A stretch of 64,000 bases of DNA from Bacteroidia bacterium. GTDB lineage: Bacteria > Bacteroidota > Bacteroidia > NS11-12g > UBA9320. The stretch lies in NCBI GenBank assembly GCA_965216465.1, contig CBDCFW010000006.1, positions 576,001 through 640,000 on the forward strand, given 5' to 3'. Both the position numbers and the translations under genes were made by a program. Position 1 is the stretch's first letter. Every line of letters begins with the position of its first letter. Below are positions 10,321 to 28,089 of this stretch, in pieces. The notes under the pieces are model-generated. The model worked only from the letters and a program-made list of their open reading frames with translations, was not told the origin of the DNA and ran no database searches.

Positions 10321-12037
10321 TTGCTAATGCATATACTTTATTGCACATCTTGAGCTCGTCATTTTTATGGGTAATAAAAACTGCAGTTTTACCTGCTTCT
10401 TTTAGCTTATTGATGGCTTCCAGTGTTTGTTGAACTGATTTAGTGTCCAAATTGTTTGTTGCCTCATCGAAAATAAACAGCTCTGCATCTTTATACAATG
10501 CCCGAGCTAAGGCAATTCGCTGACGTTGTCCGCCCGATATTTGGTTGCCCAATTCACCAACCGAAGTATCCAATCCTGATTCTAAGCCATCAACCCAATC
10601 CCAAAGATTTACTTGTTTCAAACACTCTTTAATTTTTTCGTGATCGATTTTATTTGGGTCTTGTAAAAAGGCAACATTTTCTAATATTGACCGATTAAGC
10701 ATAAAAACATCTTGCTTAACATACGAAAACAAATATCTATAGCCCTCAATATTCTCGTCAATAAGCTGACCGTCAATCTTAATCTCTCCTTTGTCTGGTT
10801 TAATCAGCGAAGCAATAACATTGACTAAGGTTGACTTTCCAGAACCACTCGGGCCAACAATACCGATAAAATCTCCTTTATTAATATCTACGCTGACCTC
10901 GTTCAGAATGGGTTCTTCTTCATGGTACGAAAAGCTCACATTTCTTAAGCTTATTTTCTCCTTAAATGGAATGTTGGTTATTGACTCACTGCTCGAATCA
11001 TAAGAGCTATTGTCGCTTGGTGTAAAGTAATCGAGAGCATAAGAGTTGGTTGCTAAGTTGTTTGATGACCCTAAAATTCGATTTACACTTGGAAGAAGTC
11101 GAAATGCCACACCAGCATATATTGAAATATACGTGATTAGGTTGTCGTTTCCTTTATTATAAATCAATGCAAAAAGCACTACGCATAAAATACCAGAAAT
11201 CGCCACCACCTCATAGATTCTCATCGGTATAAACTGCGAGCTAACATAAATAGACTGCTTCAAGTTAAATGACTCTTTCTTATTCTTATCGTACTCGTTA
11301 ATGAAATATTGAGTGCCATTCCATAGCTTGATATTAGCTATTCCATTGGTAAGTTGACTGATGTTTTCATAAATAACCGGATTGATTAAGTGCACCTTTT
11401 TGCCCTTCTTACCTAATCTACTTTTATTAAAATAAATCAATATCCCCGCTGTTGGTAAAATAGTAATGAAGGTAAAGAGAAATAAGAACGGTTTGTAAAT
11501 CAAAATTGCCCCTAGCATAAGCACTACGATTGCCAGTTCTGAAAGCAAAAGAATGCTCGGGATGATAACCATCTCCGGTAAAAATAGTGCAGCTCCAAAC
11601 AGCTCATTTATGATCTCCGAAGACTTTCTCTTTTTAAAATACAACAAGTCATTATGAGCAATCTCATGGTATCGTTTCGCCGAAATTTTATCGGTGGTTT
11701 CATAAGCAAACTTTACTTGAGCCTTATTAATTTGAACGATGATTATGTTCTTGAATACATATACTAAAAAGAGTAAACCTGTTATAATAGCCACAAATTG
11801 AATCTGGCTTTCTACTCCAAAAAGATTGGAAAGGTAGGCTGTAAATATGTTGTGTTGAATGAAGTTTGGTCGCAGAATAGAAAGTACCGTATGAAGTAAA
11901 ACTGAAATTCCGACAATCTCAAACAGGGCATTAAATACTCCCCAAAGCACCATAGTATAATAGCGGCGGCGTTGTTTAGGAGTGAATATGGCTAATAGAT
12001 TAACCCATATTTCGTTGATGCCTTTAAATCTGCTCAT
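10289..12037 (-). CDS. ABC exporter, fused TMD-NBD (PglK/MsbA-like)
   Basis: N-terminal TM helices, FRLLPSVNRI, Walker A GPSGSGKST, ISGGQRQRIALARA, FDEATNNLD. Confidence 0.9.
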   Translation of the reverse strand: MSRFKGINEIWVNLLAIFTPKQRRRYYTMVLWGVFNALFEIVGISVLLHTVLSILRPNFIQHNIFTAYLSNLFGVESQIQFVAIITGLLFLVYVFKNIIIVQINKAQVKFAYETTDKISAKRYHEIAHNDLLYFKKRKSSEIINELFGAALFLPEMVIIPSILLLSELAIVVLMLGAILIYKPFLFLFTFITILPTAGILIYFNKSRLGKKGKKVHLINPVIYENISQLTNGIANIKLWNGTQYFINEYDKNKKESFNLKQSIYVSSQFIPMRIYEVVAISGILCVVLFALIYNKGNDNLITYISIYAGVAFRLLPSVNRILGSSNNLATNSYALDYFTPSDNSSYDSSSESITNIPFKEKISLRNVSFSYHEEEPILNEVSVDINKGDFIGIVGPSGSGKSTLVNVIASLIKPDKGEIKIDGQLIDENIEGYRYLFSYVKQDVFMLNRSILENVAFLQDPNKIDHEKIKECLKQVNLWDWVDGLESGLDTSVGELGNQISGGQRQRIALARALYKDAELFIFDEATNNLDTKSVQQTLEAINKLKEAGKTAVFITHKNDELKMCNKVYALANEKLVETEKI

Positions 12038-12846
12038 TCAATAATTTTTAGCATTTTTAGTTCGACAAGAATAGGTGTATATCCAGCAACTTTACTATTG
12101 CCTTCAGGACCAAAGGCTTGGCTTGAAGGTACAACGGCTCTTATGCTCTCCCCTTCAGTTAACTGACTGACTAAAAATCGAATACCCGGTAGAATTGATT
12201 GGTCATCAACATCAAATATTAAGGGGTCCCCCTCTTTGCTAAACGCTATTAAATCTCTATTGATAGAAGTAATAGAGTATTCTATTTCAGCTTTCTGATA
12301 ATCTGTTTCTGTATCCTTAAAATCGTTTAGATACTCATAATAGATTCCAGTTGTAGAGTCTAAGCTACCATTCCATCTGTTTTGCTCAATAAACCTTTTA
12401 ATAGCTCCATCTTCATACGCTCGCTTATGTGCTAAATATTCGAAGGGATTCAATACATCTCTAACCCAAATTTTGACGGTTATTAATTCTTCTTTTTCCA
12501 ATGTCAATGGCACCACTCCTCCTAATGAGGTATAAAATTCATTCGCTGAAAGTTTAAGTTCAACAAAATCTTCGATACACGTTTGGCTAATAAGTTTAAA
12601 AACATTGGATGCAGTATCTATTAAGCTTTTACTTAATTCTACCTTACGATTTAAGTCGTTGGTGTTGAGATAAACAGAGTCATTGGCATCTGTTGAGGTA
12701 ATATCAATCAACCAATATTTCTTGTTCACATAATTGCAGGTATCGCCGCCTCGGTTGTATGATATTTCTCCTAGCTTCTGATCACCTTGCTCTTTACACG
12801 AAGCAATGGTCAATGCACAACAAAGTATAAACAGTAGTTTTTTCAT
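12034..12846 (-). CDS. FKBP-type peptidyl-prolyl isomerase lipoprotein (GldI-like)
   Basis: Lipobox TIASC; TGIYY; ILPGI...GESIRAVVPSSQAFG...YTPILVEL; downstream of a DHH gene as usual in Bacteroidota. Confidence 0.75.
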   Translation of the reverse strand: MKKLLFILCCALTIASCKEQGDQKLGEISYNRGGDTCNYVNKKYWLIDITSTDANDSVYLNTNDLNRKVELSKSLIDTASNVFKLISQTCIEDFVELKLSANEFYTSLGGVVPLTLEKEELITVKIWVRDVLNPFEYLAHKRAYEDGAIKRFIEQNRWNGSLDSTTGIYYEYLNDFKDTETDYQKAEIEYSITSINRDLIAFSKEGDPLIFDVDDQSILPGIRFLVSQLTEGESIRAVVPSSQAFGPEGNSKVAGYTPILVELKMLKIIE

Positions 12847-13926: not shown

Positions 13927-14343
13927 ATGTCAAACATCACATTTACAATGATTAAGCCGGATGCAGTGTCAAAAGGCTACACAGGAAAAATCATCAACGA
14001 TATTATTGAAGGAGGTTTTTCTATCAAAGCGATGAAGTATCTTCACCTTTCAAAAGATAAGGCTGAAGCGTTTTATGGTATCCACAGAGAAAGACCATTT
14101 TTCAATGACCTTGTTGAATACATGACATCTGGACCAATCGTTGCAGCTGTTCTTGGAAAAGATAATGCAGTTGCTGATTACAGAACTTTAATTGGAGCTA
14201 CAAACCCAGCTGAAGCAGCTGAAGGAACAATCAGAAACAAGTACGCTGAGTCAATTGAAGCAAATGCGGTTCACGGTTCTGACAGCGATGAGAACGCTAA
14301 AGGAGAAGCATCTTTCTTCTTCTCGGAATTTGAAATGTACTAA
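13927..14343 (+). CDS. ndk: Nucleoside diphosphate kinase
   Basis: [27 protein letters not shown]. Confidence 0.98.
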
Positions 14344-14364
14344 GAGATTTTTTAACTAAATATG

Positions 14365-14403
14365 AATGGGCTATTGACGTTTGTCGTTTTTAGCCCATTT
14401 TTT
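14365..14403 (+). terminator. Intrinsic terminator after ndk
   Basis: AATGGGCTA (14365-14373) pairs with TAGCCCATT (14391-14399), followed by a T run. Confidence 0.7.
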
Positions 14404-14457
14404 ATGGTTATTTATGTAGGCTCAACACAATTTTTCGTAATTTGAACCTTTATATAT

Positions 14458-16542
14458 ATGATGATGTTCAGAAACAAACTATTTATACTATTACCTTTCG
14501 TTTTTATTGCTTTTGGATTTTACCTCAAGGCTCAAGACGAAGGCGAAGATATTTTACTCCGGGCGGTTAATGTTAGCCTTCAAAATGCACACTACGATCC
14601 CGTAAAAATAGATGACAATTTCTCTGAAAAAGGTTTCGACTTATATCTCGATAACGTTGACCCTAATAAACGATTGTTTTTGAAATCAGATATTGAGGAG
14701 ATGACCAAACACAAGTACCTTCTCGATGAACAAACGCGAAATGGCACCTATGAGTTTTTTGATCTTTCGTTAAACATCATCAATCAAAGAACTGCACAAA
14801 CTGAAAAATTCTTCAATGAAATTTTAGCTCAGCCATTTGATTTTACACAAAATGAATCGGTTGATTTCAACGATAGTATGCCCTACGCTGCTTCAGAAGA
14901 CGAATTGTTCAATAGATGGCACAAATATTTGAAATACAATGTGCTAACTCGTTTGCATTCTGACATCCTCGCACAAGAAAAAGCAGTTGAAAATAACGAC
15001 TCTGGTTTTGTAGCTCAATCATTCGATTCACTTGAACGCAAGGCACGTAAAGGAGTGCTTAAAACTCATGTAGATTGGTACAAGCGTCTAAATCGTTTGG
15101 AGCGTAAAGATAGACTTGCCGTGTACATCAACAGTTTAACCACTGTTTACGATCCACATACGAACTACTTCCCTCCTGCAGATAAAGATAATTTCGATAT
15201 TCAAATGTCAGGAAGGCTGGAAGGAATTGGAGCTCAACTTCAAGATAAAGATGGCTATATTAGAATTACACGAATTATTCCTGGTGGACCTTCATCATTG
15301 CAAGGAGATCTTAAAGCCAATGATTTAATATTGGCTGTTGCACAAGAAGACGAAGATCCTGTTGATATAGTAGATTGGCGAATTGATGATGCCGTTAAAT
15401 TGATTCGAGGGAAAAAAGGAACTAAGGTTACACTAACCGTACGTAAGCCTGACGGGGCAGAACAAGATGTCACTATTACCAGAGACATTGTTGTACTTGA
15501 AGAAACCTACGCAAAATCGTTGATTATCAACGATGTAGATAATTTAAAGTCTGGATATATCTTCCTTCCTAGCTTCTATGCAGACTTTAGAAATCCTGCA
15601 GGAAGATTTAGTTGGAAAGATGTTAAAGCAGAGGTTGAAAAACTAAAAGCTGCTGGAGTACAAGGCATTATTCTAGACTTAAGAAACAATGGGGGCGGTT
15701 CACTCGATGATGTAGTGAAAATGGCCGGATTGTTTATCGACGAAGGACCAATTGTACAAGTAAAAGAAAAAGGTAGAAAAGCTCATGTGCTCGAAGATCG
15801 TAGATCTGGAGCTGAATGGGAAGGAGCACTGGTAATCATGGTTAATGAATTTAGTGCTTCTGCTTCTGAGATTATGGCTGCTGCAATGCAAGACTATAAT
15901 CGAGCAGTAATCATTGGATCGTCTTCTACACATGGTAAAGGCACCGTTCAACGCTTTTTACCTCTTAATCAGACGCTGAGAAGTAAAAACATCCCAGATT
16001 TAGGAAGTGTAAAATTAACTATCCAAAAGTTCTATAGAATTAATGGCGATGCCACCCAACTTAAAGGTGTAAGCTCAGATGTTCTGTTGCCTGACAACTA
16101 CATGTACTTGGAAACAGGTGAAAAAGAGCACGATTACCCCATGGAGTGGGATCAAATCTCAAGCTCAAGCTACGATAGTAGAGGCTATAGCGTACCAAAC
16201 AGAGTAATTAAAAAGAGTAAGGCAAGAGTTTCTGCAAATGAAACATTCAAGCTCATAGAAGAAAATGCTCAACGTTGGGAAGCTCAAAGAGAATCAACTT
16301 CTTACTCACTTAACTTCGAAGAGTATAAGTCTAATGAAGCAAAAGAAAAGGAAGAAGGAGAAAAATATAAGGCCATAGGAAAAGAACCTATTCCTGATTT
16401 CACTGTGGTTAATGTTCCTAGTGATGAAGAAGAGATCAACAAAGAAGAATCTCGTAAAAAAAGAAATGAAGAATGGATTAAAGGAGTACAAAAAGATCCT
16501 TACATCTATGAGGCTCTTCAAATCATTGAAGACTGGAATTAA
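14458..16542 (+). CDS. prc: Carboxy-terminal processing (tail-specific) protease, S41A
   Basis: DPHTNY, LEGIGAQL (PDZ), DLRNNGGG, SASASEI, GKGTVQ, KFYRING, TQLKGV. Confidence 0.92.
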   Translation: MMMFRNKLFILLPFVFIAFGFYLKAQDEGEDILLRAVNVSLQNAHYDPVKIDDNFSEKGFDLYLDNVDPNKRLFLKSDIEEMTKHKYLLDEQTRNGTYEFFDLSLNIINQRTAQTEKFFNEILAQPFDFTQNESVDFNDSMPYAASEDELFNRWHKYLKYNVLTRLHSDILAQEKAVENNDSGFVAQSFDSLERKARKGVLKTHVDWYKRLNRLERKDRLAVYINSLTTVYDPHTNYFPPADKDNFDIQMSGRLEGIGAQLQDKDGYIRITRIIPGGPSSLQGDLKANDLILAVAQEDEDPVDIVDWRIDDAVKLIRGKKGTKVTLTVRKPDGAEQDVTITRDIVVLEETYAKSLIINDVDNLKSGYIFLPSFYADFRNPAGRFSWKDVKAEVEKLKAAGVQGIILDLRNNGGGSLDDVVKMAGLFIDEGPIVQVKEKGRKAHVLEDRRSGAEWEGALVIMVNEFSASASEIMAAAMQDYNRAVIIGSSSTHGKGTVQRFLPLNQTLRSKNIPDLGSVKLTIQKFYRINGDATQLKGVSSDVLLPDNYMYLETGEKEHDYPMEWDQISSSSYDSRGYSVPNRVIKKSKARVSANETFKLIEENAQRWEAQRESTSYSLNFEEYKSNEAKEKEEGEKYKAIGKEPIPDFTVVNVPSDEEEINKEESRKKRNEEWIKGVQKDPYIYEALQIIEDWN

Positions 16543-16562
16543 TTCTCAACTAAAATATTGAA

Positions 16563-16598
16563 GCCCCCCCAAAGCTTTGGGGATGGGAGGACCTTTTT
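16563..16598 (+). terminator. GC-rich hairpin, probable terminator after prc
   Basis: Palindrome CCCCAAAGCTTTGGGG followed shortly by a T run; geometry is imperfect. Confidence 0.4.
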
Positions 16599-16675
16599 GT
16601 ATCTGGTCATTTCAGTTATAACGATTATAAATTCACTTTTCTCGTTTGCATCACGTGAATTTTCAAGGGTTTGAT

Positions 16676-16683
16676 TAAATTTG
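16676..16683 (+). promoter_or_regulatory. -7 promoter element of the AAA operon
   Basis: TAAATTTG matches TAnnTTTG, 25 nt before ATG 16709. Confidence 0.55.
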
Positions 16684-16708
16684 GGCAACTAATATTTTAA
16701 AACAAACT

Positions 16709-18073
16709 ATGTCAGATTCCTTTGATTTACTTGACCAACTAGGGGACCAAGAAAAAGTAGAAGCTCTAAAAGCAAAAATTGAAAAAAAGACCAGCACAGA
16801 TATCTCGTCTAAGCTGGACAAAATTGAACAAGAAATAGAAAAAGCAGTTGAAGAAAATCGCTCAACTGAAGATATCGTTTCGGGCATTATCAATGCCAAT
16901 TTTGAAACATTAAATGGAGATGTAAATGCTACTGAAGCTGATCTTCAAGAATTGATGCTCCACCTGAGATCGATGCTCGATAGTTGTGGGGGTGAATTTG
17001 CCAACTTACAAGAGTTGAATGATTCAGAATTAAAACTTATTGATAAGGCGACTAAAGCTCGTGAAGTTGCTGAAAAAGAAGCTAGCGATGCAGAGTCGAT
17101 GTCAAATGCATGGAATATCCTGTTTGGGTACAAGAACCGCAAGGTAAAAGCCACAAAAACCGATCTTACTAAAAAAATTGAGTTGTTAAAAGCTGCTGAA
17201 GCAGAGGCCCAAAGAAGATATCGTGAGCGTTTAAAAAATGCGGATATTGGTGAAAGTTTAAATCGAATCATTAGCCAAGTTCAAGGCATGGTTGGCATCG
17301 TAGAAAACATGATTGTTGATGTTGATGGCCAAATCGGTGCGTTGAAAAATCGTAAAGAGCTTGCATTCGATACCAAAGAGAAAGCAGCTCGAATAATGGA
17401 AGAGCGTAAAACAGACCTGGATGATGTTGAAGTTAAACTCAAAAGTGCTGAAGCCGAGTTAACAGAGTTAGCCAATAACAGCCCTGAGTACACCGAGCAA
17501 GAAAAGAAGATTGCAGATCTTAAAGAGATGCGTGCGAACCTTAAAGGTAAATTCAATATTGCTTTGGGTATTTTCCAGTCTAAAGAAAGATTCGTTGATC
17601 AAATTGTGGTTCACTTAGAAGCACAAACTACAACTAAGAATAACCTGAAACAATTAATTGGACAACTGAAGAGTGACACCGAAGAAAGGGTTACAACTTA
17701 CGAATCAGGCTTACAGCTTATCCAATCAGCAACTGCACAAGAAGCCGCTTCAATGTATGAAGAAGCAGGGGTTAAAACCGATCAGAAGATTACTGAAATT
17801 GCGGCTAAAGTTCTTGTTGGTTCTGAAAAAGATAGAATTGAGCGTGTGAAGAAACATCCTCAAAGAATGACTGAATTGCATAAGGTTCTTGTTGCCATGG
17901 CTGAAGCTACCGCAAAATATAAGGAAGAGGATGCAAAGCTAATGGAGGAACACAGCAAAAAATTTGGAATTAATGTAACTGAAACATTCTCTTCAAGCTA
18001 CGAAGGCAAGGCAGATACGCCAACTGAAGAGTCAAAAGGAAATGACAACTCTGTAGATAATTTAATGGATTAA
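16709..18073 (+). CDS. Uncharacterised all-helical coiled-coil protein
   Basis: 454 aa, K/E/A/L-rich heptads, very few Pro, one short amphipathic segment SNAWNILFGYK, no signal peptide. Confidence 0.75.
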   Translation: MSDSFDLLDQLGDQEKVEALKAKIEKKTSTDISSKLDKIEQEIEKAVEENRSTEDIVSGIINANFETLNGDVNATEADLQELMLHLRSMLDSCGGEFANLQELNDSELKLIDKATKAREVAEKEASDAESMSNAWNILFGYKNRKVKATKTDLTKKIELLKAAEAEAQRRYRERLKNADIGESLNRIISQVQGMVGIVENMIVDVDGQIGALKNRKELAFDTKEKAARIMEERKTDLDDVEVKLKSAEAELTELANNSPEYTEQEKKIADLKEMRANLKGKFNIALGIFQSKERFVDQIVVHLEAQTTTKNNLKQLIGQLKSDTEERVTTYESGLQLIQSATAQEAASMYEEAGVKTDQKITEIAAKVLVGSEKDRIERVKKHPQRMTELHKVLVAMAEATAKYKEEDAKLMEEHSKKFGINVTETFSSSYEGKADTPTEESKGNDNSVDNLMD

Positions 18074-18087
18074 CGCAGAGCATATAG

Positions 18088-19185
18088 GTGAAACCAATTG
18101 ACATAAATAATCATTTTACGTCCTTAGACCGAAGTGTCTTGGACGGAGAAAATGCCTATACTGCCTATTTCGGATATGTAAAAAATGCCTTAGATATTCT
18201 CTTAAGCTCATTTAACAGAATTCCAAGTCATAATCCTTTAGAGGTGGTTATGCTTAAGAAGTTTGCTCAAAAATTCTTGCATACCATTGAAGCCTTTCGG
18301 TTGAAGTATAACTTCGACGAGAATCAATCGATGTTGGTTGATTTAACGGAAAGTAGTTTTCCTAATTTCTTAGAATTTAAACGGTTACAAGATGACTTGC
18401 ACAAACGTGAGGCTCAGCTGAAGTCACTTCCGAACAAGGACACATTAAAGCAGAATATTTTAGATGCACTAATTCGAAATCATAAAGATCCGAATCGACT
18501 GCTTCAGCAGCTGAGTAAACGCAACTATTATTCGAGTTTAGAAATACATAAACTGTTTTTTGAGTTTACTCCTGGTAAAATTGAGTTAATCAAACAGCAC
18601 GATGATAAAGAAGAAACAAGAACCTACTTTTATTCTTGGGCTTCTTTTGACAGTGTTACCAACAAACCTTATGTATACACAATGGTGTTTGACAATCCAA
18701 CCAACACCAAGCATAGCGGTGGCGACATCAAGCGAGACCATGACTTTATCGAGGTCATAAAACGATGTACACACAACAGCGCACCGCTAAAAGTGGTTGC
18801 ATCAGATATTGATAATTCATACGAGAATATCTACCCAAAAGTGCTTAAACGAATTGAGTTGGGTCCAATTTATGGGAAGTATAGCCAAGACAAACATCCC
18901 TTTACGCTTATGCTTCGAAATCATTTTTCGGAAGAAGATTTCATTTTAACCTATCAAACCGAAATTGTTTTCTCGGTAGGTCAAAAGCGAACTTCCTCAT
19001 TTCTATCGAAGGGTGAATTGAGACAAGTATTTCATGTTGACGAGTCAAATAAAGACTGCATGGAAAAAATGATATCTCAACTCGACAAATATATGATTAC
19101 CTCGCATCGCGTACTGCAATACATTAACGATACTCAGCCAGAGGCATTAAAAGAACTTACTGTTCCTGCCTACGTATATAATTGA
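18088..19185 (+). CDS. Hypothetical cytoplasmic protein
   Basis: 365-aa ORF, GTG start 14 nt after the previous stop and ending 1 nt before the ATPase start; no motif recognised. Confidence 0.75.
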   Translation: MKPIDINNHFTSLDRSVLDGENAYTAYFGYVKNALDILLSSFNRIPSHNPLEVVMLKKFAQKFLHTIEAFRLKYNFDENQSMLVDLTESSFPNFLEFKRLQDDLHKREAQLKSLPNKDTLKQNILDALIRNHKDPNRLLQQLSKRNYYSSLEIHKLFFEFTPGKIELIKQHDDKEETRTYFYSWASFDSVTNKPYVYTMVFDNPTNTKHSGGDIKRDHDFIEVIKRCTHNSAPLKVVASDIDNSYENIYPKVLKRIELGPIYGKYSQDKHPFTLMLRNHFSEEDFILTYQTEIVFSVGQKRTSSFLSKGELRQVFHVDESNKDCMEKMISQLDKYMITSHRVLQYINDTQPEALKELTVPAYVYN

Positions 19186-19186
19186 T

Positions 19187-21148
19187 ATGGAAAAACAAGA
19201 ATCATCATTACTCAAAATAAAAGAAGAAGACTTATTAGAATATAAGGATGAAGTAACGGGATACCTCAAAACGGTAAGCTGGAAACCCGATCATAAAAAC
19301 TCGAATCAAAGTATTGATTTGAATTTTTTAAGTGATGTAACAAAGGCTCTCGATATTCAGAAAGAAGATGAGATTTCGATTATGAAAGCCGCAATTCGCA
19401 TTAGCAATGACCGGGTAATCCTTTCAAACCAATCGAACCACGTACTTAATGCCATTCGAACGGGGTTTTGTATTGGTAAATATGTTGCCTCGCTCTATTC
19501 TGATACCAGCGGATTAGAATTGCTGCATCAAAAGAATGTAAGTGGTTCGCTCCACCAATCTGAATTGCCTGAATTTCATGATAAGAGTCAAACACAGTCG
19601 GCTATTTTACTGTATAGTGCTGCCTCTTATATCAAATTTACATTGCAGGACTATCTGGCAGATGAAGTGTCGTCTATTCAAATCGACTTCGGGGGAATTC
19701 CTCAAGTAAGTTTAACACGACCAACAAAGGCCATCAAGTGTGCTTTGTATTACTATGCGGCATACCTTGAAAAGTCAGGAATTGTAAAAACTGATCTACA
19801 CTTCATAAAAATGACCTTGCTCTATTTCGAGCGGTTAATGGAAGAGATTCAGCTTCGTAAGAATGCGTTAAAATACACGACCGTATTTTCTGATAATCAC
19901 TACAAACTTGAGAATTCTGAGTTTGTAATTCAAGGGTTTGAACAAGCCTCTTTAGCAAGTGTTAAAGGAATGCAATTCAATCCAATCAGAATGGAGCAAA
20001 TTGTATCGAACAAACAAGCTAAGCACATGTTTAAGCGCTATGCGGATCGATTAATGTGCTTTGACTTTGAGGCGAAGAAAAATCCGATGAATGAATTGGG
20101 AGGACTTCCTTCAATCACTATGGCAGATGGTAAGCCAGGTACAGGAAAAAGTATGCTTATCGCGGCAACAGCAACCTTACTGCAGGAACGATGCGATCAG
20201 CTTGGTCACAACTTTTTATTTTGGCCTCTTCCTGAAAATATTGTTTCTACTTTTCAAGGTGGAACTGCAGAAAGAGCCATGGAATGGTTTAAACCCATGC
20301 AGGACACCAACAAAATTGTATTTGCACCTATCGACGACGCCGAAAACAATCTTGAAGAAAGAACCAGACAAGGAGTTTCGGCTGGTGTTAGGGAATTTAT
20401 CGGAGTGTTTTTAAGGAATACAGAAGGGGCTTACGCAGTAAACAATGGAAACCGATTAATCAGCTTGTTCACTAACATCCCAGACCAAATTGATAAAGCT
20501 GTACTCTCCAGAATCCAAATGAGAATCTCGATGGAAGGTGCATCAGATAAGTACGACTTTATTGACCAAGACTACCTCTGGTGGAATAAATATGCTCAAC
20601 TCGATCAGAATTTCATTGACAATACCGATCCTTCGAGTTATACCTACATGGAAGCTCAAAAATCTGTTAATTCAATTAACGATTTACTCAGCGACAAGTA
20701 CAAATTCACCAATGATAAGGTAAAAGACATTTACAAGGATTGCTTAGATGATGTAGATATCAATTCGCATGAATTTTTTGGTGTTTTTTACAGTGAGATT
20801 TTAAAGCAATATCCATTTTTCTCTTCTCGTGACCTTCGAAACATTCAGAAGGCTGTTGATGCTCGATTGATCGATTTTGATTTGCCAGAAGTGTGGTGGG
20901 AGAATCACGATGATTTCTTTAACAAAAATTATGACGACAAGTTGGTCATTCTTAAAGAACTGATGAAGGAAAACATGAAAGGAGCATCGTTTAGTCAAGT
21001 TCGCGTATTTGAAGCATTGAACTACATCGAAAATGCCATACGAATTAATGAAACTGGCATAAATAGAGACATCAAAGAGCGTGCGAAACAGATGTATATT
21101 CAAGAACAAGCAAGTAAAAAGTTAAGAAGCGGAGAGATACATGATTAA
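19187..21148 (+). CDS. AAA family ATPase with long N-terminal domain
   Basis: Walker A GKPGTGKS, pore loop VSTFQG, Walker B variant FAPIDDAE, SRH TNIPDQIDKAVLSRI, FSSRDLRNI lid motif. Confidence 0.88.
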   Translation: MEKQESSLLKIKEEDLLEYKDEVTGYLKTVSWKPDHKNSNQSIDLNFLSDVTKALDIQKEDEISIMKAAIRISNDRVILSNQSNHVLNAIRTGFCIGKYVASLYSDTSGLELLHQKNVSGSLHQSELPEFHDKSQTQSAILLYSAASYIKFTLQDYLADEVSSIQIDFGGIPQVSLTRPTKAIKCALYYYAAYLEKSGIVKTDLHFIKMTLLYFERLMEEIQLRKNALKYTTVFSDNHYKLENSEFVIQGFEQASLASVKGMQFNPIRMEQIVSNKQAKHMFKRYADRLMCFDFEAKKNPMNELGGLPSITMADGKPGTGKSMLIAATATLLQERCDQLGHNFLFWPLPENIVSTFQGGTAERAMEWFKPMQDTNKIVFAPIDDAENNLEERTRQGVSAGVREFIGVFLRNTEGAYAVNNGNRLISLFTNIPDQIDKAVLSRIQMRISMEGASDKYDFIDQDYLWWNKYAQLDQNFIDNTDPSSYTYMEAQKSVNSINDLLSDKYKFTNDKVKDIYKDCLDDVDINSHEFFGVFYSEILKQYPFFSSRDLRNIQKAVDARLIDFDLPEVWWENHDDFFNKNYDDKLVILKELMKENMKGASFSQVRVFEALNYIENAIRINETGINRDIKERAKQMYIQEQASKKLRSGEIHD

Positions 21149-22414
21149 GCTTGTACAAAACGGACTTTTTGGTAACAACCTGTATTCGGTTGATAGTCCT
21201 CCTATGGTTAAACGATACAATGAATGCTTGGAGGATATTGGTTTACAAAAAACGAAGCTTAAAAAGTTTCATATTGATGGCTGGGGATGGAGCCCAGAAA
21301 TAGCTGAAGAGCAAAAAAATCGATTCTATTTGTCACATGGCTTAGCCAATCCATTTGGGGTCATAATTTCACCTAAGCAGCAAAACGCTCCAATCTACAT
21401 GCCGTTTCATAGCTTCGACCGAGAAATTCATAAATACATTTTTAAAACATATAGTCAACAGATTGAAGATATCACAGCCACTTGTGGATTGTGGTTCGAA
21501 TTGGATCAAGAAATCTCAGCCTACCGTTCACCTCAAGATTTGTTAATGGTAGATTATATCAATGTCAATTTCTATTCGGTAGATCGAATCATGACTGCGG
21601 CAAGAGAACAAAGAGCATTGATTAGAGAGTTTCATGATGTGCCTCAAGCTTGGTCAAACGATGAATTGAGATTGAAGATTATAGAAAGCAGTCAAAAATA
21701 TGGGGATCTTAGGTTCCGAAAATTTGAAATCCCAAAGGTTCCGTTTAGTGCGGTAGAAAATTATTATACCCTAGGATTTAACGGGTTATACATTCTCAAA
21801 GGAAAGGGAAATGAGAAACCACTTTTAATCTTTAAAGATAACAGCTCAAAAGTTTCAGGTCAATTGGATAATTCGCACATTGAATTTAACATAGACGACC
21901 CTGGACTTTTAAGTTATTTATACAATAAATCGTTGATTTCCAACGATATTGACTTGTTTACAGATCACCCTAGCTTGATTGAAATCATGAAAGATTTCTT
22001 TCTCGTTAAGGCGGCTGTTGAACATAACGAAAAGGTTGAATTTAAAGACTTAAATACAGTACAAAAGAAGGGTTTGGTTAACAGAATGTTACAAGAAGAA
22101 CTACTGTCTGATGTTTACTTCGAATTGGAACGCTTGCTAAGTGCGTTGCAAAAGCAAGAGCAATTGGACCGATACATAACAAGCGAAACATTGCAACCTT
22201 ATTTGTTGCATCCTCACCCTAGTTTATCAACCCAAGAAAGCGGGTAATTTGGCACTTGTTGTGTAACATCAATGCACATTCACCAATGCTTACGTACTTG
22301 TTCGACAAACCTTCTTTCTACACCGCATATACTTCATGGCCGAAACAAGTACAGGTTTGGATCATTGAAAATATACTTCGACACAAAGAAATTTATAACG
22401 ACTTAATGAACTAA
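21141..22414 (+). pseudogene. DUF6638-like protein, frameshifted near 22242-22244 (real lesion or sequencing error)
   Basis: ORF stops at 22247 (AGC GGG TAA), but the -1 frame continues VIWHLLCNINAHSPMLTYLFDKPSFYTAYTSWPKQVQVWII...LMN to TAA 22412-22414, 2 nt before the next ATG. N-terminus (GLFGNNL..V.SP.MV.RYN..L; FHIDGWGWSPEI) resembles DUF6638 from memory. Confidence 0.7.
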
Positions 22415-22416
22415 TC

Positions 22417-22918
22417 ATGGATATTTTAATTTCACTCTTAATTGGATTTGCACTTGGTATTGTTTTCTTCATCTGGGATAACAAGAAAGGTAAAAAATGG
22501 CATCGTAGGTGGTATGACCTAAGTCACAAAACACCTTTGGCTGAAGATTCAGAGGATAGCTTTATTGTTAATCAGCCCTTCTCTAAGAAATTGATTCCGG
22601 CAGTGATTATTACCATTCTGTTTAGTTACGTGACATGGTCATTTGGTGACATCAATCCAATTCTGGCGATAATTTCTTCCTTAATTATGCTGGTAGCTGT
22701 ACTGATTGGGTTTTATGTTGGTCCATTCATGAGCAGAACTGTACCTAAAGGTTTAAATGAAGCAAACAAAACATTAAAAAAAGCTGGATGCGTTGGAGCA
22801 AGATATACTTCAAGACCAACCTGAAAAAGAGGTCATTGAAATTAAGCCTAAGGACGAAAATGAGCCCAAAAAAGATGATGATTGGAGAAAAGGAGTTAAA
22901 GACTTTTTAGATAAGTAA
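22417..22918 (+). pseudogene. Three-TM membrane protein, frameshifted in the A7 run at 22776-22782 (real lesion or sequencing error)
   Basis: ORF stops at 22824. The +1 frame after the A run reads KLDALEQDILQDQPEKEVIEIKPKDENEPKKDDDWRKGVKDFLDK to TAA 22916-22918, 3 nt before the next ATG. Confidence 0.7.
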
Positions 22919-22921
22919 ACT

Positions 22922-24511
22922 ATGGAACAAGCAGAAGAGTCAAGAAGCAGGATTTATTGGGTCCTTCATAACCTCCGCAAACGACTTGGGGGATTTATAA
23001 AACGTGCATTTAAGAATAGACCAATACTTAGCATCATTATATCCTTGGTTTTAGTTTATATGGTGTTTGTAAGCAGGGGCAGTTTTCAACCAGGCTTTCT
23101 ATTCCTAAGAAAATATTACTTGCTTGTTTTAGTCATTCTTTTGATCTTTTATTGGTTTGTTAAAACATGGGAAAGGCGAGAAACTAGAGGTAAAATCATA
23201 ACAACGGTTCTCATGCTGTTGGTAGCAACTGGCAGCTATTTTTATGGTGCTGGAGTATATCGTTATGTTAGCTTGTACTTTCATTACTCTCAAATTAATA
23301 AGGTCGAGCTAGATGAATTTCCCGAGACAGCTTTTGAGCGCATTCAGCCCATTAACTCTGTTCGAACATTAATCAATCAGGAAGGTCTTTCGGAAACAGA
23401 AGATGCTACTTTGCCTCGATTTGTGAGAGGTAGCGACAATGAATATTATTTCACCTGCGCGGTTGGACCTTCTCAGGAATACAAAGTACAACAGATGACC
23501 AAAAACATGTATGAGGTCATTCATATTCCAGCTGATTTGCCCGCTCCGGTGTTTTCAAAAAAATATCGAGAAGAAGTCAATTTTGATGTTGGAGAACTCT
23601 TACTTTTCAGCAAGAAAACTAAGTATGCAGTGGTAAAGAAATTTAACCTTCTGCAGTACTTTAATTATGAGATTGGATCTCCTATTTATGTGCCCAGCCA
23701 AGACAAAGGATGGTTGCAAGTTGTTCCACTTATTCGATGGAAGGGAGTTCTATTTCCTCGTCCTGTGTTTGGCGGGGTGATGGTAATCGATGAAACGACA
23801 TCAGAAGACAACTTTATGATGCGTATTCTATTTGGTGAAGGTCAATACTATACTCCTACTGAAATTCATAACATAGATGGCCTGCATGGGCAAAATTTGA
23901 TCCCTGAAAAAGTGGCCAAGTTCACAGCGGAGAGCTTCCGCTTTACAAATGGTTTTTTTGCTCCTTTACCTATGTATCACGAAGGTGATATACGTATTCC
24001 ATCGCTGCCTAATGACGTTGATCCTCAACCATTTACAGCATTTTTTAATATTAAAAATGATGAGAAGCTGTATAACTTCTTTGGACTAGAACCCTATCAA
24101 GAAAACAAGAAAGGATTGAGTTTAAGTCTCTTTATTCCTGGAGATGATGACAGCAAAGTATATTTTATAGACCACCGAAAATCGAACTTGTCTTACATCG
24201 GAAGCAGTGCAATTTCTGCTAAGATTATTGAAAGTAAAAAGAACTACGACTGGACTAAAAACTACCCAGCTGAAAGCAGACCATTTATTCGAAATGTGGA
24301 AGGAAAATCACGGTTATTCTGGTTAAGCACAATTGTTACCAAGGCAGGTGAAAATACTGGTGATTACATTGGAGGTAGTATCCCAGAAATTACCTTAACC
24401 GATGCCGTGCACGGTAAAGTTGTCTGGATCAACTCTGATTCGCTAATTCAAAATGATTCATGGATCAGACAAGCCCAAAGTGAATTACACAATTATTGGG
24501 AAAATGAATAA
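22922..24511 (+). CDS. Membrane protein with three N-terminal TM helices and a large soluble (probably periplasmic) domain
   Basis: 529 aa; hydrophobic stretches at about aa 35-50, 65-82 and 92-110, then a beta-rich domain. Confidence 0.75.
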   Translation: MEQAEESRSRIYWVLHNLRKRLGGFIKRAFKNRPILSIIISLVLVYMVFVSRGSFQPGFLFLRKYYLLVLVILLIFYWFVKTWERRETRGKIITTVLMLLVATGSYFYGAGVYRYVSLYFHYSQINKVELDEFPETAFERIQPINSVRTLINQEGLSETEDATLPRFVRGSDNEYYFTCAVGPSQEYKVQQMTKNMYEVIHIPADLPAPVFSKKYREEVNFDVGELLLFSKKTKYAVVKKFNLLQYFNYEIGSPIYVPSQDKGWLQVVPLIRWKGVLFPRPVFGGVMVIDETTSEDNFMMRILFGEGQYYTPTEIHNIDGLHGQNLIPEKVAKFTAESFRFTNGFFAPLPMYHEGDIRIPSLPNDVDPQPFTAFFNIKNDEKLYNFFGLEPYQENKKGLSLSLFIPGDDDSKVYFIDHRKSNLSYIGSSAISAKIIESKKNYDWTKNYPAESRPFIRNVEGKSRLFWLSTIVTKAGENTGDYIGGSIPEITLTDAVHGKVVWINSDSLIQNDSWIRQAQSELHNYWENE

Positions 24512-25186
24512 TTAGGCAGGTTCGCAGCATTCCATCTGCTCTTTTTCTGCATTGAAATCTGGGCTGATATAAGGAATACCTAAGCCTGCTGATCTTACTA
24601 CTAGCATCAACCCTACAAAAAGTAGAAGTTTGGGTGTATGCTTGTTAAGCTTTTGCATTATGCCTGCTTTACCAAATTGCGGCAAGTACGATATGGCCAA
24701 CAAAATAGGTAAGGTTCCCAAACCAAAAAGAATCATGTACAGTGACACATTGAGTGCACTTCCTGCATTGACTGAAAGAATTGCAGCACCAAAGGATAAG
24801 CCACATGGTAAAAGGCCGTTCAGTACCCCTAAAAATAAACTTCCCGTTCTGCCAGGATTGGTTTTTAGCATTCTGTTTGAAACCACTTTAGTTATCTTTT
24901 CAATTAGGCGATTAACCGGTTTGATGTAACCTTTTAAGGCATAGAGAATCAGCAATACTCCACTGGCTAAGCCGACATATTGTTGCATTTCAAAAACTTG
25001 AAGCGGAGATACTAAAAAATAGAAGAATATGGCCAAGGCTATGTATCCAATCCATCTACCAAGATGGTGAACCAGCAATGAAAACAGTGAATATTGTCGT
25101 GCCCCTAATCCTAACATAAATGGACCACACATCGCAGCGCAATGCAAGCTTCCTAATAGACCAAGTATGAAGGCTGACCACATCAT
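24512..25186 (-). CDS. DsbD_2 / TauE-SafE-like cbb3 oxidase assembly membrane protein
   Basis: GLLGSLHCAAMCGP, LNGLLPCGL, MILFGLGTLP; last gene of the cco cluster. Confidence 0.88.
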   Translation of the reverse strand: MMWSAFILGLLGSLHCAAMCGPFMLGLGARQYSLFSLLVHHLGRWIGYIALAIFFYFLVSPLQVFEMQQYVGLASGVLLILYALKGYIKPVNRLIEKITKVVSNRMLKTNPGRTGSLFLGVLNGLLPCGLSFGAAILSVNAGSALNVSLYMILFGLGTLPILLAISYLPQFGKAGIMQKLNKHTPKLLLFVGLMLVVRSAGLGIPYISPDFNAEKEQMECCEPA

Positions 25187-25608
25187 AATGCTAATTGTTG
25201 CTTTTTAAAGAATGGTTTTCCGTTTACCTCACCTTGCACTTCCATAATCCAATTTCCTTCTTCCAATTCTCCAAGTGCTATTTTAACATTTGAACTAGGA
25301 CTTGTATCGGTGAAAATAAGATCTCGATCCTGACTTTTATCTGCCAGATGTACCAGCTTAAAACTTGAAATCAGACCGATTGAATCAAACTGAAATAAAA
25401 ACTGATTATGATTTCTAATCAACTCGTAGCTCACATATTTCGCTTGAACTTCCATGTTCATTCGAGAGGCGTGTTCTTCACCTAATTCATAATAGTCTTC
25501 TTCATACAACTCTTGAGAAGATGTAGCCATTTTAATGCCCATTCCTACTATTAATAGAATGAAGCACACCATTGTGACTATCAATATTTTGGACCAATCA
25601 AATTTCAT
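25183..25608 (-). CDS. ccoH: FixH/CcoH family protein
   Basis: N-terminal W-x-K plus TM helix, LYEEDYYELG motif, GNW; between ccoG and the DsbD_2 gene. Confidence 0.78.
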   Translation of the reverse strand: MKFDWSKILIVTMVCFILLIVGMGIKMATSSQELYEEDYYELGEEHASRMNMEVQAKYVSYELIRNHNQFLFQFDSIGLISSFKLVHLADKSQDRDLIFTDTSPSSNVKIALGELEEGNWIMEVQGEVNGKPFFKKQQLAL

Positions 25609-27005
25609 TTTCGTACTGGAGCTAAGAATGTAGTTTCAAAACTACGTAGAAGCTCACCATCTACAAACAGGTCGAGGTGCATTTTATGCTCGTTTTGCGA
25701 AATATCTTTCGCTTGCATCTCAATGATAAAGACTTTTTTCTCTTCACTATTTGCTTCTAGCACTGAGTCTTGCTCGGCACGAGTCATTGTAGCATTATCA
25801 TCTTTCAACACAATTTTAAACTCAACATCATCGAAAGTTTTGTTCACCATCGAAAGGTTATATACGTTGGTAATTGTTCCGTCATCAGCTTCAGCATAGG
25901 TCATTCCAACTGCTCTAAGCACCTTTGCTTCTACACTTTTTCTATTGGCTAAAATGCCTACAGAAGCACCTAGAAGCAATACCATAACCAAGCTATAGGC
26001 AATAATTCTTGGCGTAAACTTGAAACCAACTTTGTTCTCGATGTTATTGGTTGAATCAATACGAATTAGTCCTCTCGGCTTTTTGATCTTGTCCATTACC
26101 GAATCACACGCATCCATGCATGCTGTACAGTTTACACATTCGAGTTGAGTGCCATTTCGGATATCAATTCCTGTAGGACAAACATCTACACAAATACCGC
26201 AGTCAACACAATCGCCCTTGTCTGCTTGACTTTCATTTTTTCTGATTTTGCCTCGTGGCTCCCCCCGAACATGATCGTAATTCACTACCATGCTATTGGG
26301 ATCAAGCATTACACCTTGTAAGCGACCGTAAGGGCAAATCATAATACACACCAACTCTCGAAGGCGTGCAAAAACGAGATAAAAGACAATTGTGAAAATA
26401 ACCAAGCCAATTAAGGTGACATAGTTTTCAGAGAATGGCCCAGTAATTTTAGCCCATAATTCTTCATAACCAATGAGGTACACTAAGAATGTATGAGCGA
26501 TTACAAATGATATTAAAAAGAAGATGCTATGCTTTGCTCCTTTCTTCAGGATTTTTTCCCGATTCCAAGGCATAGCATCTAATTTTCGTTGTTTGTTTGC
26601 GTTACCTTCAATCCAGTTTTCGACCTTTCTAAACACCATTTCCATGAATATGGTTTGTGGACAAGCCCATCCACACCATACTCTACCGAAAATTACGGTG
26701 AATAGAATAATGAAAACCAGAAGGGTGAGAGCGAGAAACACAAAAACGTGAAAGTCTTGTGGCCAAAATGGCTGTCCGAAAACTACAAACTTTCTTTCGA
26801 AAACATTGAGCAGTAAAAGTGGATATCCCCCAATTTTAACAAAAGGTGCTAGGAAAAAGAATGCTAAAAGAAACCAACTTAAATATGTTCTATACCTATA
26901 AAATGCTCCTTTTATTATCTTGGGATATATCCATATCCTTTTACCGCTCTCGGTCACATTAGCTAAATGCTCCCTAAAGTTCTCTGTATTTTTATGATCG
27001 CTCAT
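25605..27005 (-). CDS. ccoG: Cytochrome c oxidase accessory protein CcoG
   Basis: GRVWCGWACPQT, CIMICPYGRLQ, CVDCGICVDVCPTGIDIRNG, CVNCTACMDAC. Confidence 0.96.
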   Translation of the reverse strand: MSDHKNTENFREHLANVTESGKRIWIYPKIIKGAFYRYRTYLSWFLLAFFFLAPFVKIGGYPLLLLNVFERKFVVFGQPFWPQDFHVFVFLALTLLVFIILFTVIFGRVWCGWACPQTIFMEMVFRKVENWIEGNANKQRKLDAMPWNREKILKKGAKHSIFFLISFVIAHTFLVYLIGYEELWAKITGPFSENYVTLIGLVIFTIVFYLVFARLRELVCIMICPYGRLQGVMLDPNSMVVNYDHVRGEPRGKIRKNESQADKGDCVDCGICVDVCPTGIDIRNGTQLECVNCTACMDACDSVMDKIKKPRGLIRIDSTNNIENKVGFKFTPRIIAYSLVMVLLLGASVGILANRKSVEAKVLRAVGMTYAEADDGTITNVYNLSMVNKTFDDVEFKIVLKDDNATMTRAEQDSVLEANSEEKKVFIIEMQAKDISQNEHKMHLDLFVDGELLRSFETTFLAPVRK

Positions 27006-27020
27006 TGAGTAGGCTCAAAT

Positions 27021-27920
27021 TTAGCCTTCTACTTCTTCAGTTTCTGTAACTTCAGTTGCTTCTTCAGCAGCTTCCGTTTCAGGTTCTTCTTCAGGTGTCC
27101 AAATTTGACCTTCAGGTTCTTTCGCACCATCTGGGTTTGAACCTTCCAAGCTAATAATATAGCTTGTTACCTCTTGAATTTTCTGCGGACTTAGTTGATC
27201 TTGCCAAGCAGTCATCCCTTTATCGATTATACCATACTTTATCGATTTAAAGATGTTCTTAGCTCCACCACCGTGTTTCCAGTATTCATCTGTAAGGTTA
27301 GGCCCAACATTTCCTTTACCTCCTTTATCGTGACATACTTTACAGTTTTGAATGTAGATCTTTCTTCCGGCATCAATAGCTGCTGCATCGGTTAATGCTA
27401 CAACAGTATTCTCGTCTACAAAAGATGCTTCTTCTTCAAGATTCTCTGTTTTCTTTTCTGTTGCTGCTTCAATCTCAGCCGCGTATTCTTGTTCTTGGGT
27501 CATTCCAGAATCTGTAACACTGTATCTTACAAAATAGATAACAGCAAAAAGGATTGTACCGTAGAATAAGAACATAAACCAAGGTGGAGGAGGGTTATCT
27601 AACTCATAAATTCCATCGTGTGGTTCATTGATACGCGTATCTTGATCTGTTCCAACCGGCTTAAGCTGAAATAGCTTCTCCCAGGTTGTACGTTGATCGT
27701 ACATTTTTTGTTCTTCTGATTCGTATTCACCGCGTACGTACTTTTTCAAGCTAATCGTAACTCTATACAGTAAATAGGTTACCAAAAGTAGAAGACCAAC
27801 AATTATATATATGATCCATAACAAAGGCTCAGATAAGCCGCCTTGTGCCTCCCCTGACTGTGCAAACAGATTAAAGGAAGTTAAACTCGCTATTAGTGTT
27901 AGGGCAATTTTATTCTTCAT
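27021..27920 (-). CDS. ccoP: cbb3-type cytochrome c oxidase subunit III
   Basis: HDGIYELDNPPPPW, single CKVCH heme site, GPNLTDEYW, GMTAW. ATG 27920 overlaps the ccoQ end. Confidence 0.94.
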   Translation of the reverse strand: MKNKIALTLIASLTSFNLFAQSGEAQGGLSEPLLWIIYIIVGLLLLVTYLLYRVTISLKKYVRGEYESEEQKMYDQRTTWEKLFQLKPVGTDQDTRINEPHDGIYELDNPPPPWFMFLFYGTILFAVIYFVRYSVTDSGMTQEQEYAAEIEAATEKKTENLEEEASFVDENTVVALTDAAAIDAGRKIYIQNCKVCHDKGGKGNVGPNLTDEYWKHGGGAKNIFKSIKYGIIDKGMTAWQDQLSPQKIQEVTSYIISLEGSNPDGAKEPEGQIWTPEEEPETEAAEEATEVTETEEVEG

Positions 27921-28089
27921 GATTTTCAATTTTTGATGGTTTTAAGGGTAAATTAGATAACTCTGTTACTTGTTCTTTATTGAGTGAAAACATGTACACC
28001 GCAGCAAGAACAAATACCATTATAAAAATTAGAAGAGCGATAATCAAATAGACATCTGCACCTTCAACGTATCCTATCATTTTTCCCAT
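27910..28089 (-). CDS. ccoQ: cbb3-type cytochrome c oxidase subunit IV (59 aa, absent from ORF track)
   Basis: Manual translation MGKMIGYVEGADVYLIIALLIFIMVFVLAAVYMFSLNKEQVTELSNLPLKPSKIENHEE; single TM and a C-terminal LPL; between ccoNO and ccoP. Confidence 0.85.
   Translation of the reverse strand: MGKMIGYVEGADVYLIIALLIFIMVFVLAAVYMFSLNKEQVTELSNLPLKPSKIENHEE

Follow-up and report, generated by a model that had tools for sequence, protein, structure and literature searches.

Two described arrangements come closest to the locus reported here. Vps4/CdvC and its ESCRT-III partners (Snf7, CdvB) combine a classical-clade AAA ATPase with a helical protein acting at a membrane, and the tails of ESCRT-III proteins carry MIM peptides. 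Gene pairs of PspA and an AAA ATPase have also been noted computationally in bacteria, and the same study describes the PspA-linked ATPases as having two AAA domains, of which the first is inactive (Ravi et al. 2024, PMC11237479). We analyzed a stretch of 64,000 nucleotides (the window; positions 576,001 to 640,000 of contig CBDCFW010000006.1, assembly GCA_965216465.1) from a Bacteroidia bacterium of the NS11-12g lineage, in which a cassette of six genes, g1 to g6, encodes an ATPase (g3), a helical protein (g1), two soluble proteins (g2 and g4), and two membrane proteins (g5 and g6). By analogy, the cassette would work most like Vps4 with ESCRT-III or like the PspA and AAA pairs, and it is a member of neither. 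It likewise places a classical-clade AAA ATPase beside a helical protein that probably acts at the membrane, and the flexible terminal tail of g1, with its conserved peptide, can be likened to the ESCRT-III tails. The differences are that g3 has a single AAA domain and lacks the MIT and Vps4_C domains, and that g2, g4, g5, and g6 have no counterpart in either system. Furthermore, 22 g1 orthologues matched 37 families at E ≤1, and the 25 of these that were listed include neither PspA_IM30 nor Snf7; the analogy to PspA, ESCRT-III, and TelA drawn in a preliminary description of this DNA finds no support among the 25.

The cassette is a real operon, and its gene order is the same in bacteria of several phyla. 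We tentatively propose, at somewhat less than an even chance, that its six genes form one dedicated machine of undescribed function built around g3 as a hexameric ATPase, whose ring, with two cofactors, would thread and recycle a membrane-binding g1 at the inner membrane. No characterized pathway was found for this gene set in PADLOC, NCBIfam, PHROGs, or a literature search of limited coverage, as the preliminary description had anticipated; the same literature search found DUF6638 (the family of g4) in no paper. None of the six proteins scored above the cut-off in NCBIfam, PHROGs gave only generic ATPase or membrane matches, and PADLOC-DB 2.0 gave a single match through the generic ATPase core (g3 to IetA; E 0.0027) and none for the other five. 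No nuclease, protease, or transporter family was found, in line with the first reading of the sequence, and the library searches also revealed no defence family.

Conservation and distribution of the unit

To collect orthologous loci, an ATPase alignment was run against genomes representing one species each; the scan yielded at least 306 related stretches among 592 pattern matches, and the best 80 loci were kept. All six families occur in the same order and on the same strand in 65 of these 80 loci, which bears out their description as one conserved unit. When all open reading frames (ORFs) were clustered, g3 was found in 80 loci, g2 in 77, g4 in 76, g1 in 74, g5 in 68, and g6 in 66; the next commonest family (24 loci) is a NUDIX gene that some of the Flavobacteriaceae carry between g3 and g4. 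The genes that are present keep their order and strand in every locus (80/80). Fifteen loci are incomplete, including 11 cut by contig ends and four real departures: (i) in L019, g6 lies on another contig of the same genome; (ii) L025 has no g1 or g2 within 10 kb; and (iii, iv) Desulfonema magnum and a Trueperaceae genome carry g1-g4 and no g6 relative anywhere in the genome. In the window itself, the ORFs confirm six co-oriented genes (Table 1) with gaps of 14, 1, -8, 2, and 3 nt when the shifted-frame ends of g4 and g5 are used, the negative value being an overlap of the g4 start with the g3 end.

A distant four-gene form with the same order is present on large replicons of Vibrio parahaemolyticus and V. 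vulnificus and in Sinorhizobium, Rhizobium, and Shinella records. Its g3 is 24-27% identical to the six-gene g3 over >80% of the length, its g2 and g4 match their six-gene counterparts at E 1e-23 to 1e-27 and E 7e-15 to 8e-28, respectively, and its g1 is matched by profile comparison at 97.5-98% probability. The unit thus consists of a cytoplasmic four-gene core (g1-g4), joined in most lineages by a membrane pair (g5/g6). The membrane anchors on which the preliminary description had docked the coiled-coil polymer are not obligatory, given the two large genomes with g1-g4 and without g6.

According to the locus titles, the 80 loci include Flavobacteriaceae (Kordia, Polaribacter, Tenacibaculum, Dokdonia, Winogradskyella, Algibacter, Olleya, and others) and other Bacteroidota (Cryomorphaceae, Owenweeksia, Chitinophagales, and Saprospiraceae), while those from outside the phylum belong to two Desulfobacterota, a Trueperaceae genome, and bins labelled Patescibacteria and Saccharospirillaceae. 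An ATPase tree, built by a quick method with rows of <600 aa left out and a midpoint root for drawing only, contains three clades, i.e., the non-Bacteroidota, the Bacteroidota with the window (28 rows), and the Flavobacteriaceae (49 rows). In the Flavobacteriaceae clade, genera are monophyletic and end branches are short, and flanking genes are common to 15-19 loci of this family. The pattern looks like long vertical descent within the Flavobacteriaceae and occasional transfer elsewhere. The DUF6638 family was detected above the cut-off in 5 of 41 close genomes, including the window's own; the other four are among 24 further members of the genus, and none of 16 sister-family genomes has it. 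Phylum-wide, it was detected in 4 of 401 genomes with ≥90% completeness, again counting the window's own.

Such a patchy spread, over several phyla and large Vibrio and Rhizobium replicons, would also suit an anti-phage or stress-triggered suicide module, in which g1 is a ClyA-like membrane-disrupting effector kept harmless and the ATPase, on a signal received via g2/g4 or g6, releases or unfolds it into the inner membrane. A STAND NTPase adjoins the Trueperaceae copy, and the weak fold neighbors of g1 include pore-forming toxins (AhlC, MakA, XaxB, and PaxB). We consider this explanation rather improbable. The flanks shared among Flavobacteriaceae loci and an ATPase tree that follows genera with short branches are unlike fast-turnover defence genes, the flanks in the window are housekeeping genes (NDK, an S41 protease, and cbb3 oxidase assembly), and PADLOC offers no family save the generic IetA match. 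Phage records, PHROGs, and IMG/VR gave nothing beyond generic matches either: there was no g3 match in phage records and none of note in PHROGs, and in IMG/VR no g6 relative was found and 14 loci share only a generic AAA-core match to g3 (24% over residues 305-483).

Several loci depart from the compact layout. In Flavobacteriaceae (L040-L089), the cassette is loosened by gaps of 0.6-5.7 kb (g3-g4 and g4-g6) holding unrelated small genes, such as those for NUDIX (24/80 loci), S26 signal peptidase, SnoaL-like, and 23S rRNA intervening-sequence proteins, and g1 to g6 together take up 6953 to 15053 nt, depending on the locus. In Sinorhizobium meliloti Ak57 (L100; CP090106.1, a 3.7-Mb record labelled pSymB yet chromosome-sized), an endonuclease-domain gene and an ISRm16 transposase lie between the AAA and DUF6638 genes, and a DUF2333 protein that is unrelated to g6 by hhalign directly follows DUF6638 (insertions and neighbors at 10920-12665 and 14154-15377 of the locus). 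A literature search for DUF2333 turned up only an unrelated type VI secretion system locus. The gene SMc02733, for which one study lists an intragenic ChvI-binding fragment (PMC3687685), could not be shown to belong to the cassette and was not used as evidence.

Table 1. Features of the cassette, in window coordinates unless residues are stated
Feature	Position	Strand	Description
Candidate promoter element TAAATTTG	16676-16683	+	Candidate Bacteroidota -7 element, 25 nt before g1 ATG; read directly
g1	16709-18073	+	454 aa, all-helical rod protein
g2	18088-19185	+	365 aa, GTG start, soluble, stand-alone family
g3	19187-21148	+	653 aa, single-domain classical-clade AAA ATPase
g3 motifs	residues 315-322; F356-Q-G358; D383-D384; N430; R442, R446		Walker A; pore loop; Walker B; sensor-1; arginines
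g4	21141-22414	+	DUF6638 protein; first frame 21141-22247 (368 aa), remainder in frame 22223-22414
g5	22417-22918	+	Small protein with three transmembrane segments; first frame 22417-22824 (135 aa), continues in frame 22778-22918
g6	22922-24511	+	529 aa, three transmembrane helices and a beta-rich external domain of ~400 aa
Cassette	16709-24511	+	Six genes

The ATPase and the helical protein

The assignment of g3 to the classical AAA clade was upheld by a PF00004 match of 36.1 bits (cut-off, 21.2) over residues 315-448. The AAA core (305-450) lies between an N-domain (~1-300) and a C-terminal extension of ~200 aa. Motif conservation was counted over 81 orthologous sequences. Walker A (G-x-P-G-T-G-K-S) is invariant in all 81 save for S/T exchange, and pore loop 1 consists in all 81 of an aromatic residue (F in 67, Y in 14), then Q, then G, the middle residue thus being Gln and not hydrophobic. 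Sensor-1 N430 and R442 are likewise found in 81/81 and R446 in 80/81; an alignment to Rpt4 suggests that the two arginines are arginine fingers. Walker B reads D-D in place of D-E in 81/81, aligning with the D-E of Rpt4 so that D384 falls on the Glu, and the catalytic Glu is absent from this position; E386, two residues further on, is invariant (81/81). From its motifs, g3 appears to keep what serves nucleotide binding, inter-subunit arginine sensing, and substrate threading, with the catalytic acid altered.

The nearest solved relative of the window's g3 is Rpt4 (E 0.007), and those of the Sinorhizobium orthologue are the Yme1 ATPase domain, Afg2, PAN, Rpt subunits, and fidgetin-like 1 (best E 7.8e-06); a profile of 14 orthologues returned nothing from the PDB at 0.001. 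As far as such matches indicate, the best solved relatives of the g3 orthologues are unfoldases, which we count in favor of a motor role. With Yme1/FtsH, Afg2/Cdc48, PAN/Rpt, and fidgetin-like 1, g3 shares Walker A, the aromatic residue and Gly of pore loop 1, the sensor-1 Asn, and the two arginines of the second region of homology. It differs from them in that the matches are weak, Walker B is D-D and not D-E, the pore-loop Gln stands where their residue is hydrophobic, the N-domain and C-terminal extension are unmatched, and no protease domain is present. Neither of these flanking regions gave a match in Pfam or a PDB profile search, with no Pfam family (MIT and Vps4_C included) outside the AAA core. 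Having a single AAA domain in which the pore loop and arginines are conserved, g3 does not present itself as an obvious module for oligomerization alone, and NSF was returned by none of the searches. No related protein of at least 1144 aa, as a fusion would be, was found, which is weak evidence.

In its AF2 model (pLDDT 69.6, pTM 0.44), g1 is a rod made up entirely of helices, the longest of 111 residues, and hydropathy indicates no transmembrane segment or signal peptide. Its tail (residues 425-454) falls below pLDDT 50, i.e., is predicted to be disordered, has a net charge of -6, and ends in D-N-L-M-D; an acidic-acidic-hydrophobic-hydrophobic C-terminal peptide of this DDLL type is present in 63 of 74 orthologues, as is [FY]DLL[DE] at the start (FDLL(D/E) in the window). 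Residues ~134-145 form an aromatic-basic tip, AWNILFGYKNRK, whose W..L[FW]G element is kept in 64/74 orthologues and lies in the model at a helix-helix turn with basic residues after it. No fitting Pfam family was found for the window protein or 22 orthologues, and a profile search of the PDB returned only keratin and ClpC coiled-coil matches.

A Foldseek comparison of g1 with the PDB likewise returned no ESCRT-III, PspA, or Vipp1 structure among the 38 rows listed (ranks 1-49). The weak fold neighbors are membrane-active helical bundles, i.e., the ClyA-family toxins AhlC (E 0.036; TM score 0.30 by query and 0.52 by target), MakA (E 0.035), XaxB (E 0.15), and PaxB, as well as F-BAR domains; in addition, Bacillus_HBL matches 1 of 22 g1 orthologues (E 0.0028). 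Both groups bind or enter membranes, and g1 resembles them as an elongated antiparallel helical bundle with a short hydrophobic/aromatic element at one end. The similarity lacks significance and has no sequence relation behind it; in addition, g1 has no secretion signal and is cytoplasmic by context. For the suicide module considered above, this means that the toxin matches of g1 fall short of significance (E ≥0.035).

Complex prediction for g3(1-300) with g1 gave an ipSAE of 0.47 (runs of 0.48, 0.39, and 0.47), compared with 0.00 for the best of three controls; at least 50% of contacts are common to the runs, with a partner pLDDT of 58 or more. Of 80 solved complexes, 58 attained the mark applied here, as did 2 of 110 mismatched pairs; at ipSAE ≤0.60, only 7 of those 80 and both mismatches attained it. 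These calibration counts apply approximately to the present prediction, for which our own alignments were used. A pass at ipSAE ≤0.60 is more often wrong than right unless the pairing is likely beforehand. The preliminary description had the ATPase remodelling the coiled-coil protein; what stands of this, weakly, is a predicted binding of g3 to g1.

Soluble partners and the membrane pair

No match to g2 was found in Pfam, NCBIfam, PADLOC, PHROGs, or a PDB profile search. Its family comprises 512 representatives (50% identity, E ≤0.001), of which the 150 listed measure 145-415 aa. The suspected membership of g4 in DUF6638 (PF20343), a family without known function, is supported by 112.8 bits against a cut-off of 27, and the Sinorhizobium orthologue scores 256 bits. 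Among 1180 relatives of g4, all 120 of those listed carry DUF6638 alone; a PDB profile search gave only OspC (E 0.14), and g4 orthologues matched unnamed ESM Atlas clusters with scores of ≤0.85. Comparisons by hhalign revealed no relation between g2 and g4, g3 and g2, or g3 and g4.

Both soluble proteins are well conserved globular families with invariant polar residues. Together with the occurrence of the g1-g4 block alone in Desulfonema, Trueperaceae, Vibrio, and Sinorhizobium and with the overlap of g3 and g4, this would fit an assembly or activation chaperone, in which g2 and g4 constitute an enzyme or sensor that the ATPase assembles, activates, or resets, g1 is a scaffold, and g5/g6 are a lineage-specific localizing add-on. 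Rubisco activase and Bcs1-type AAA proteins act in this manner. We regard such a role as unlikely: Pfam, NCBIfam, and PDB profiles revealed no catalytic family or motif in g2 or g4, no fused forms were found, and the strict pore loop and the g1 tail fit the threading of g1 equally well.

Hydropathy places three transmembrane segments in each of g5 and g6, as first described, and none in g1-g4, and g5 and g6 are, by this measure, probably inner-membrane proteins. The segments of g5 span residues 1-19, 59-77, and 82-100, and its C-terminal tail ends in a basic motif, DWRKGVKDFLDK, kept in 52 of 68 orthologues. Positive-inside charge counts indicate that the g5 tail and the K/R-rich N-terminus of g6 are cytoplasmic and that the g6 domain is outside. 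An earlier hint of XpaC in g5 proved to be noise (Halogen_Hydrol in 1 of 18 orthologues at E 0.028 and in the window piece at E 0.052, below the 29.8-bit cut-off). The AF2 model of g6 (pLDDT 85.1, pTM 0.85) has no solved counterpart of its external domain in the PDB (best TM score ≤0.19), and no PDB or Pfam sequence match was found.

By fold, the g6 model strongly matches one predicted viral protein of 588 aa, BFVD A0A6G5YLZ4 (E 2.1e-15; probability 1.00; identity 13%; TM scores 0.58/0.53 over 557 columns). For A0A6G5YLZ4, neither a PHROG nor an IMG/VR locus nor a literature mention was found.

A threading motor encoded with two membrane proteins, one of them bearing a large external domain of unknown fold, raises the prospect of an export or membrane-insertion device, in which the ATPase would unfold g1 or another client into a g5/g6 channel or insertase and leave the helical protein in or beyond the inner membrane; the conserved terminal peptides of g1 could then be targeting signals. 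This appears very improbable, given that three plus three helices make a small channel at best, that no secretion-system family was matched in Pfam or NCBIfam, that four-gene forms do without g5/g6, and that g1 has neither a signal peptide nor a transmembrane segment.

In the recycling machine that we tentatively favor, g1 would sit via its tip on the cytoplasmic face of the inner membrane; in the six-gene form, the g5 tail together with the g5/g6 pair would place it there. Aided by g2 and g4 as soluble cofactors or adaptors, the AAA ring would grip g1 by a terminal tail and pull it through the pore, and threading would free g1 from the membrane or an assembly for re-use. The Asp-for-Glu exchange in Walker B may make g3 a slow or tightly regulated motor, and through its external domain g6 may link the cycle with the periplasm or cell envelope. 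In support of this reading, we count the linkage of six families in 65/80 loci with no seventh family in more than 24/80, the tight spacing with the 8-nt g3/g4 overlap, the g5/g6 topology, and the vertical, conserved inheritance in Flavobacteriaceae; the acidic disordered tail, conserved termini, and aromatic-basic tip of g1 make it the client candidate.

Several points weigh against it. Five of the six proteins have no characterized homologue, g3 alone having characterized relatives, and the roles given to g2 and g4 are guesses. With Asp in place of the catalytic Glu in 81/81 sequences, hydrolysis by g3 may be very slow or absent. As for g1, it has no sequence or fold relation to ESCRT-III or PspA, its model is moderate (pTM 0.44) with every fold match above E 0.02 (best, 0.022), and no sign was found of its polymerization, which the preliminary description had supposed, or of membrane binding. 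The four-gene forms in Desulfonema, Trueperaceae, Vibrio, and Sinorhizobium indicate that the membrane pair is inessential to the core activity. Finally, the copy in the window has two frameshifts.

Frameshifts, flanks, and significance

The two frameshifts that the preliminary description had reported, single-base shifts in g4 and g5, are real when judged against four congeneric relatives (L006-L009). These carry all six genes intact at the corresponding place, following the NDK and S41 protease genes, with g4 and g5 each in one frame (ORFs of 422/423 aa and 171/177 aa in L006/L007). For g1 to g6, the intact ORFs of the two parsed relatives measure 465/457, 365/366, 653/653, 423/422, 171/177, and 531/529 aa. 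Alignment to L007 indicates that g4 lacks one base at or near an AAA run (22237-22239) and that g5 has one surplus A in an A7 run (22776-22782). On the PF20343 profile (439 positions), the first g4 piece covers positions 2-328 (E 2.4e-32), and the shifted piece covers positions 346-393 (E 0.019). Public contigs of run X1 (depth ~2) cover 21917-22991 with zero mismatches to the window, and their only two inner breaks (22218/22237 and 22780/22778) fall at the two frameshift sites, neither of which is bridged. This break pattern is what variation in A-run length among reads would give, and a depth of ~2 proves nothing; the frameshifts may be either mutations or assembly errors.

With frameshifts in both g4 and g5, this copy may be out of use. 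It is doubtful, albeit a possibility of some weight, that the cassette of this genome is a decaying remnant without function, whatever its role elsewhere. Two independent 1-base shifts shorten g4 to 368 of ~423 residues and g5 to 135 of ~171 while the genes of kin are intact, and most of the genus does without the cassette, which was not found in 20 of 24 other genomes. Conversely, both shifts lie in A runs, as is typical of assembly or polishing errors, g1, g2, g3, and g6 are intact, sharing 65-88% identity with kin, and the public-contig breaks exactly at both sites imply that reads may disagree with the assembly there.

The putative promoter TAAATTTG is the sole TAnnTTTG, which we take to be the Bacteroidota -7 promoter consensus, on the + strand in 16401-24600. 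At orthologous loci, TAnnTTTG occurs within -150 to +60 of the called start in 13 of 69, compared with 686 of 6625 background windows. A sigma-70 promoter scan found 17 sites and no excess over shuffles (mean, 23.3), and a terminator scan found 8 sites, no more than in shuffles (5.4). Upstream, a perfect 16-nt palindrome, CCCCAAAGCTTTGGGG (16567-16582), lies 25 nt past the stop of the S41 protease gene and is followed by a T5 run 11 nt further on; together they possibly form a terminator separating that gene from the cassette, one that is not on the terminator-scan list.

The flanks of the window's cassette are housekeeping genes, with NDK and the tail-specific S41 protease upstream and a cbb3-type cytochrome oxidase maturation set directly downstream on the - strand (24512-27929; DsbD_2, FixH, a FixG/CcoG-like ferredoxin, and a CcoP-like cytochrome c), which is syntenic in relative L007. 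The g6 stop codon TAA (24509-24511) directly adjoins the convergent DsbD_2 stop (24512-24514), and because the stop codons abut, there is no intergenic room for a terminator between the two genes. No clean empty site was found, as three kin without the cassette keep the S41 protease gene and do not have the window's downstream genes within ~10 kb.

A broader proposal, speculative and fairly unlikely in our estimate, is that the cassette gives bacteria a third, independent way to remodel or repair membranes with ATP, alongside the dynamin-like proteins and ESCRT-III/PspA with Vps4-type ATPases. It would employ a non-ESCRT rod with an aromatic wedge in the inner membrane, recycled by a single-ring Asp-Asp AAA ATPase with two new cofactor families and mostly wired to the envelope through the new-fold g6 domain. 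At the level of observation, five protein families without assigned function travel together across several bacterial phyla, and the sole recognizable member is a protein-unfolding motor whose catalytic site is unusual. The carriers include cultured marine Flavobacteriaceae (Polaribacter, Dokdonia, Kordia, Tenacibaculum, and Winogradskyella), and those of the four-gene core include Sinorhizobium meliloti and Vibrio. Because the core occurs in genetically tractable species, its function is directly testable. Identifying the client of g3 would bring a new AAA machine into bacterial cell biology and could also reveal a new handling of membrane-bound helical proteins.

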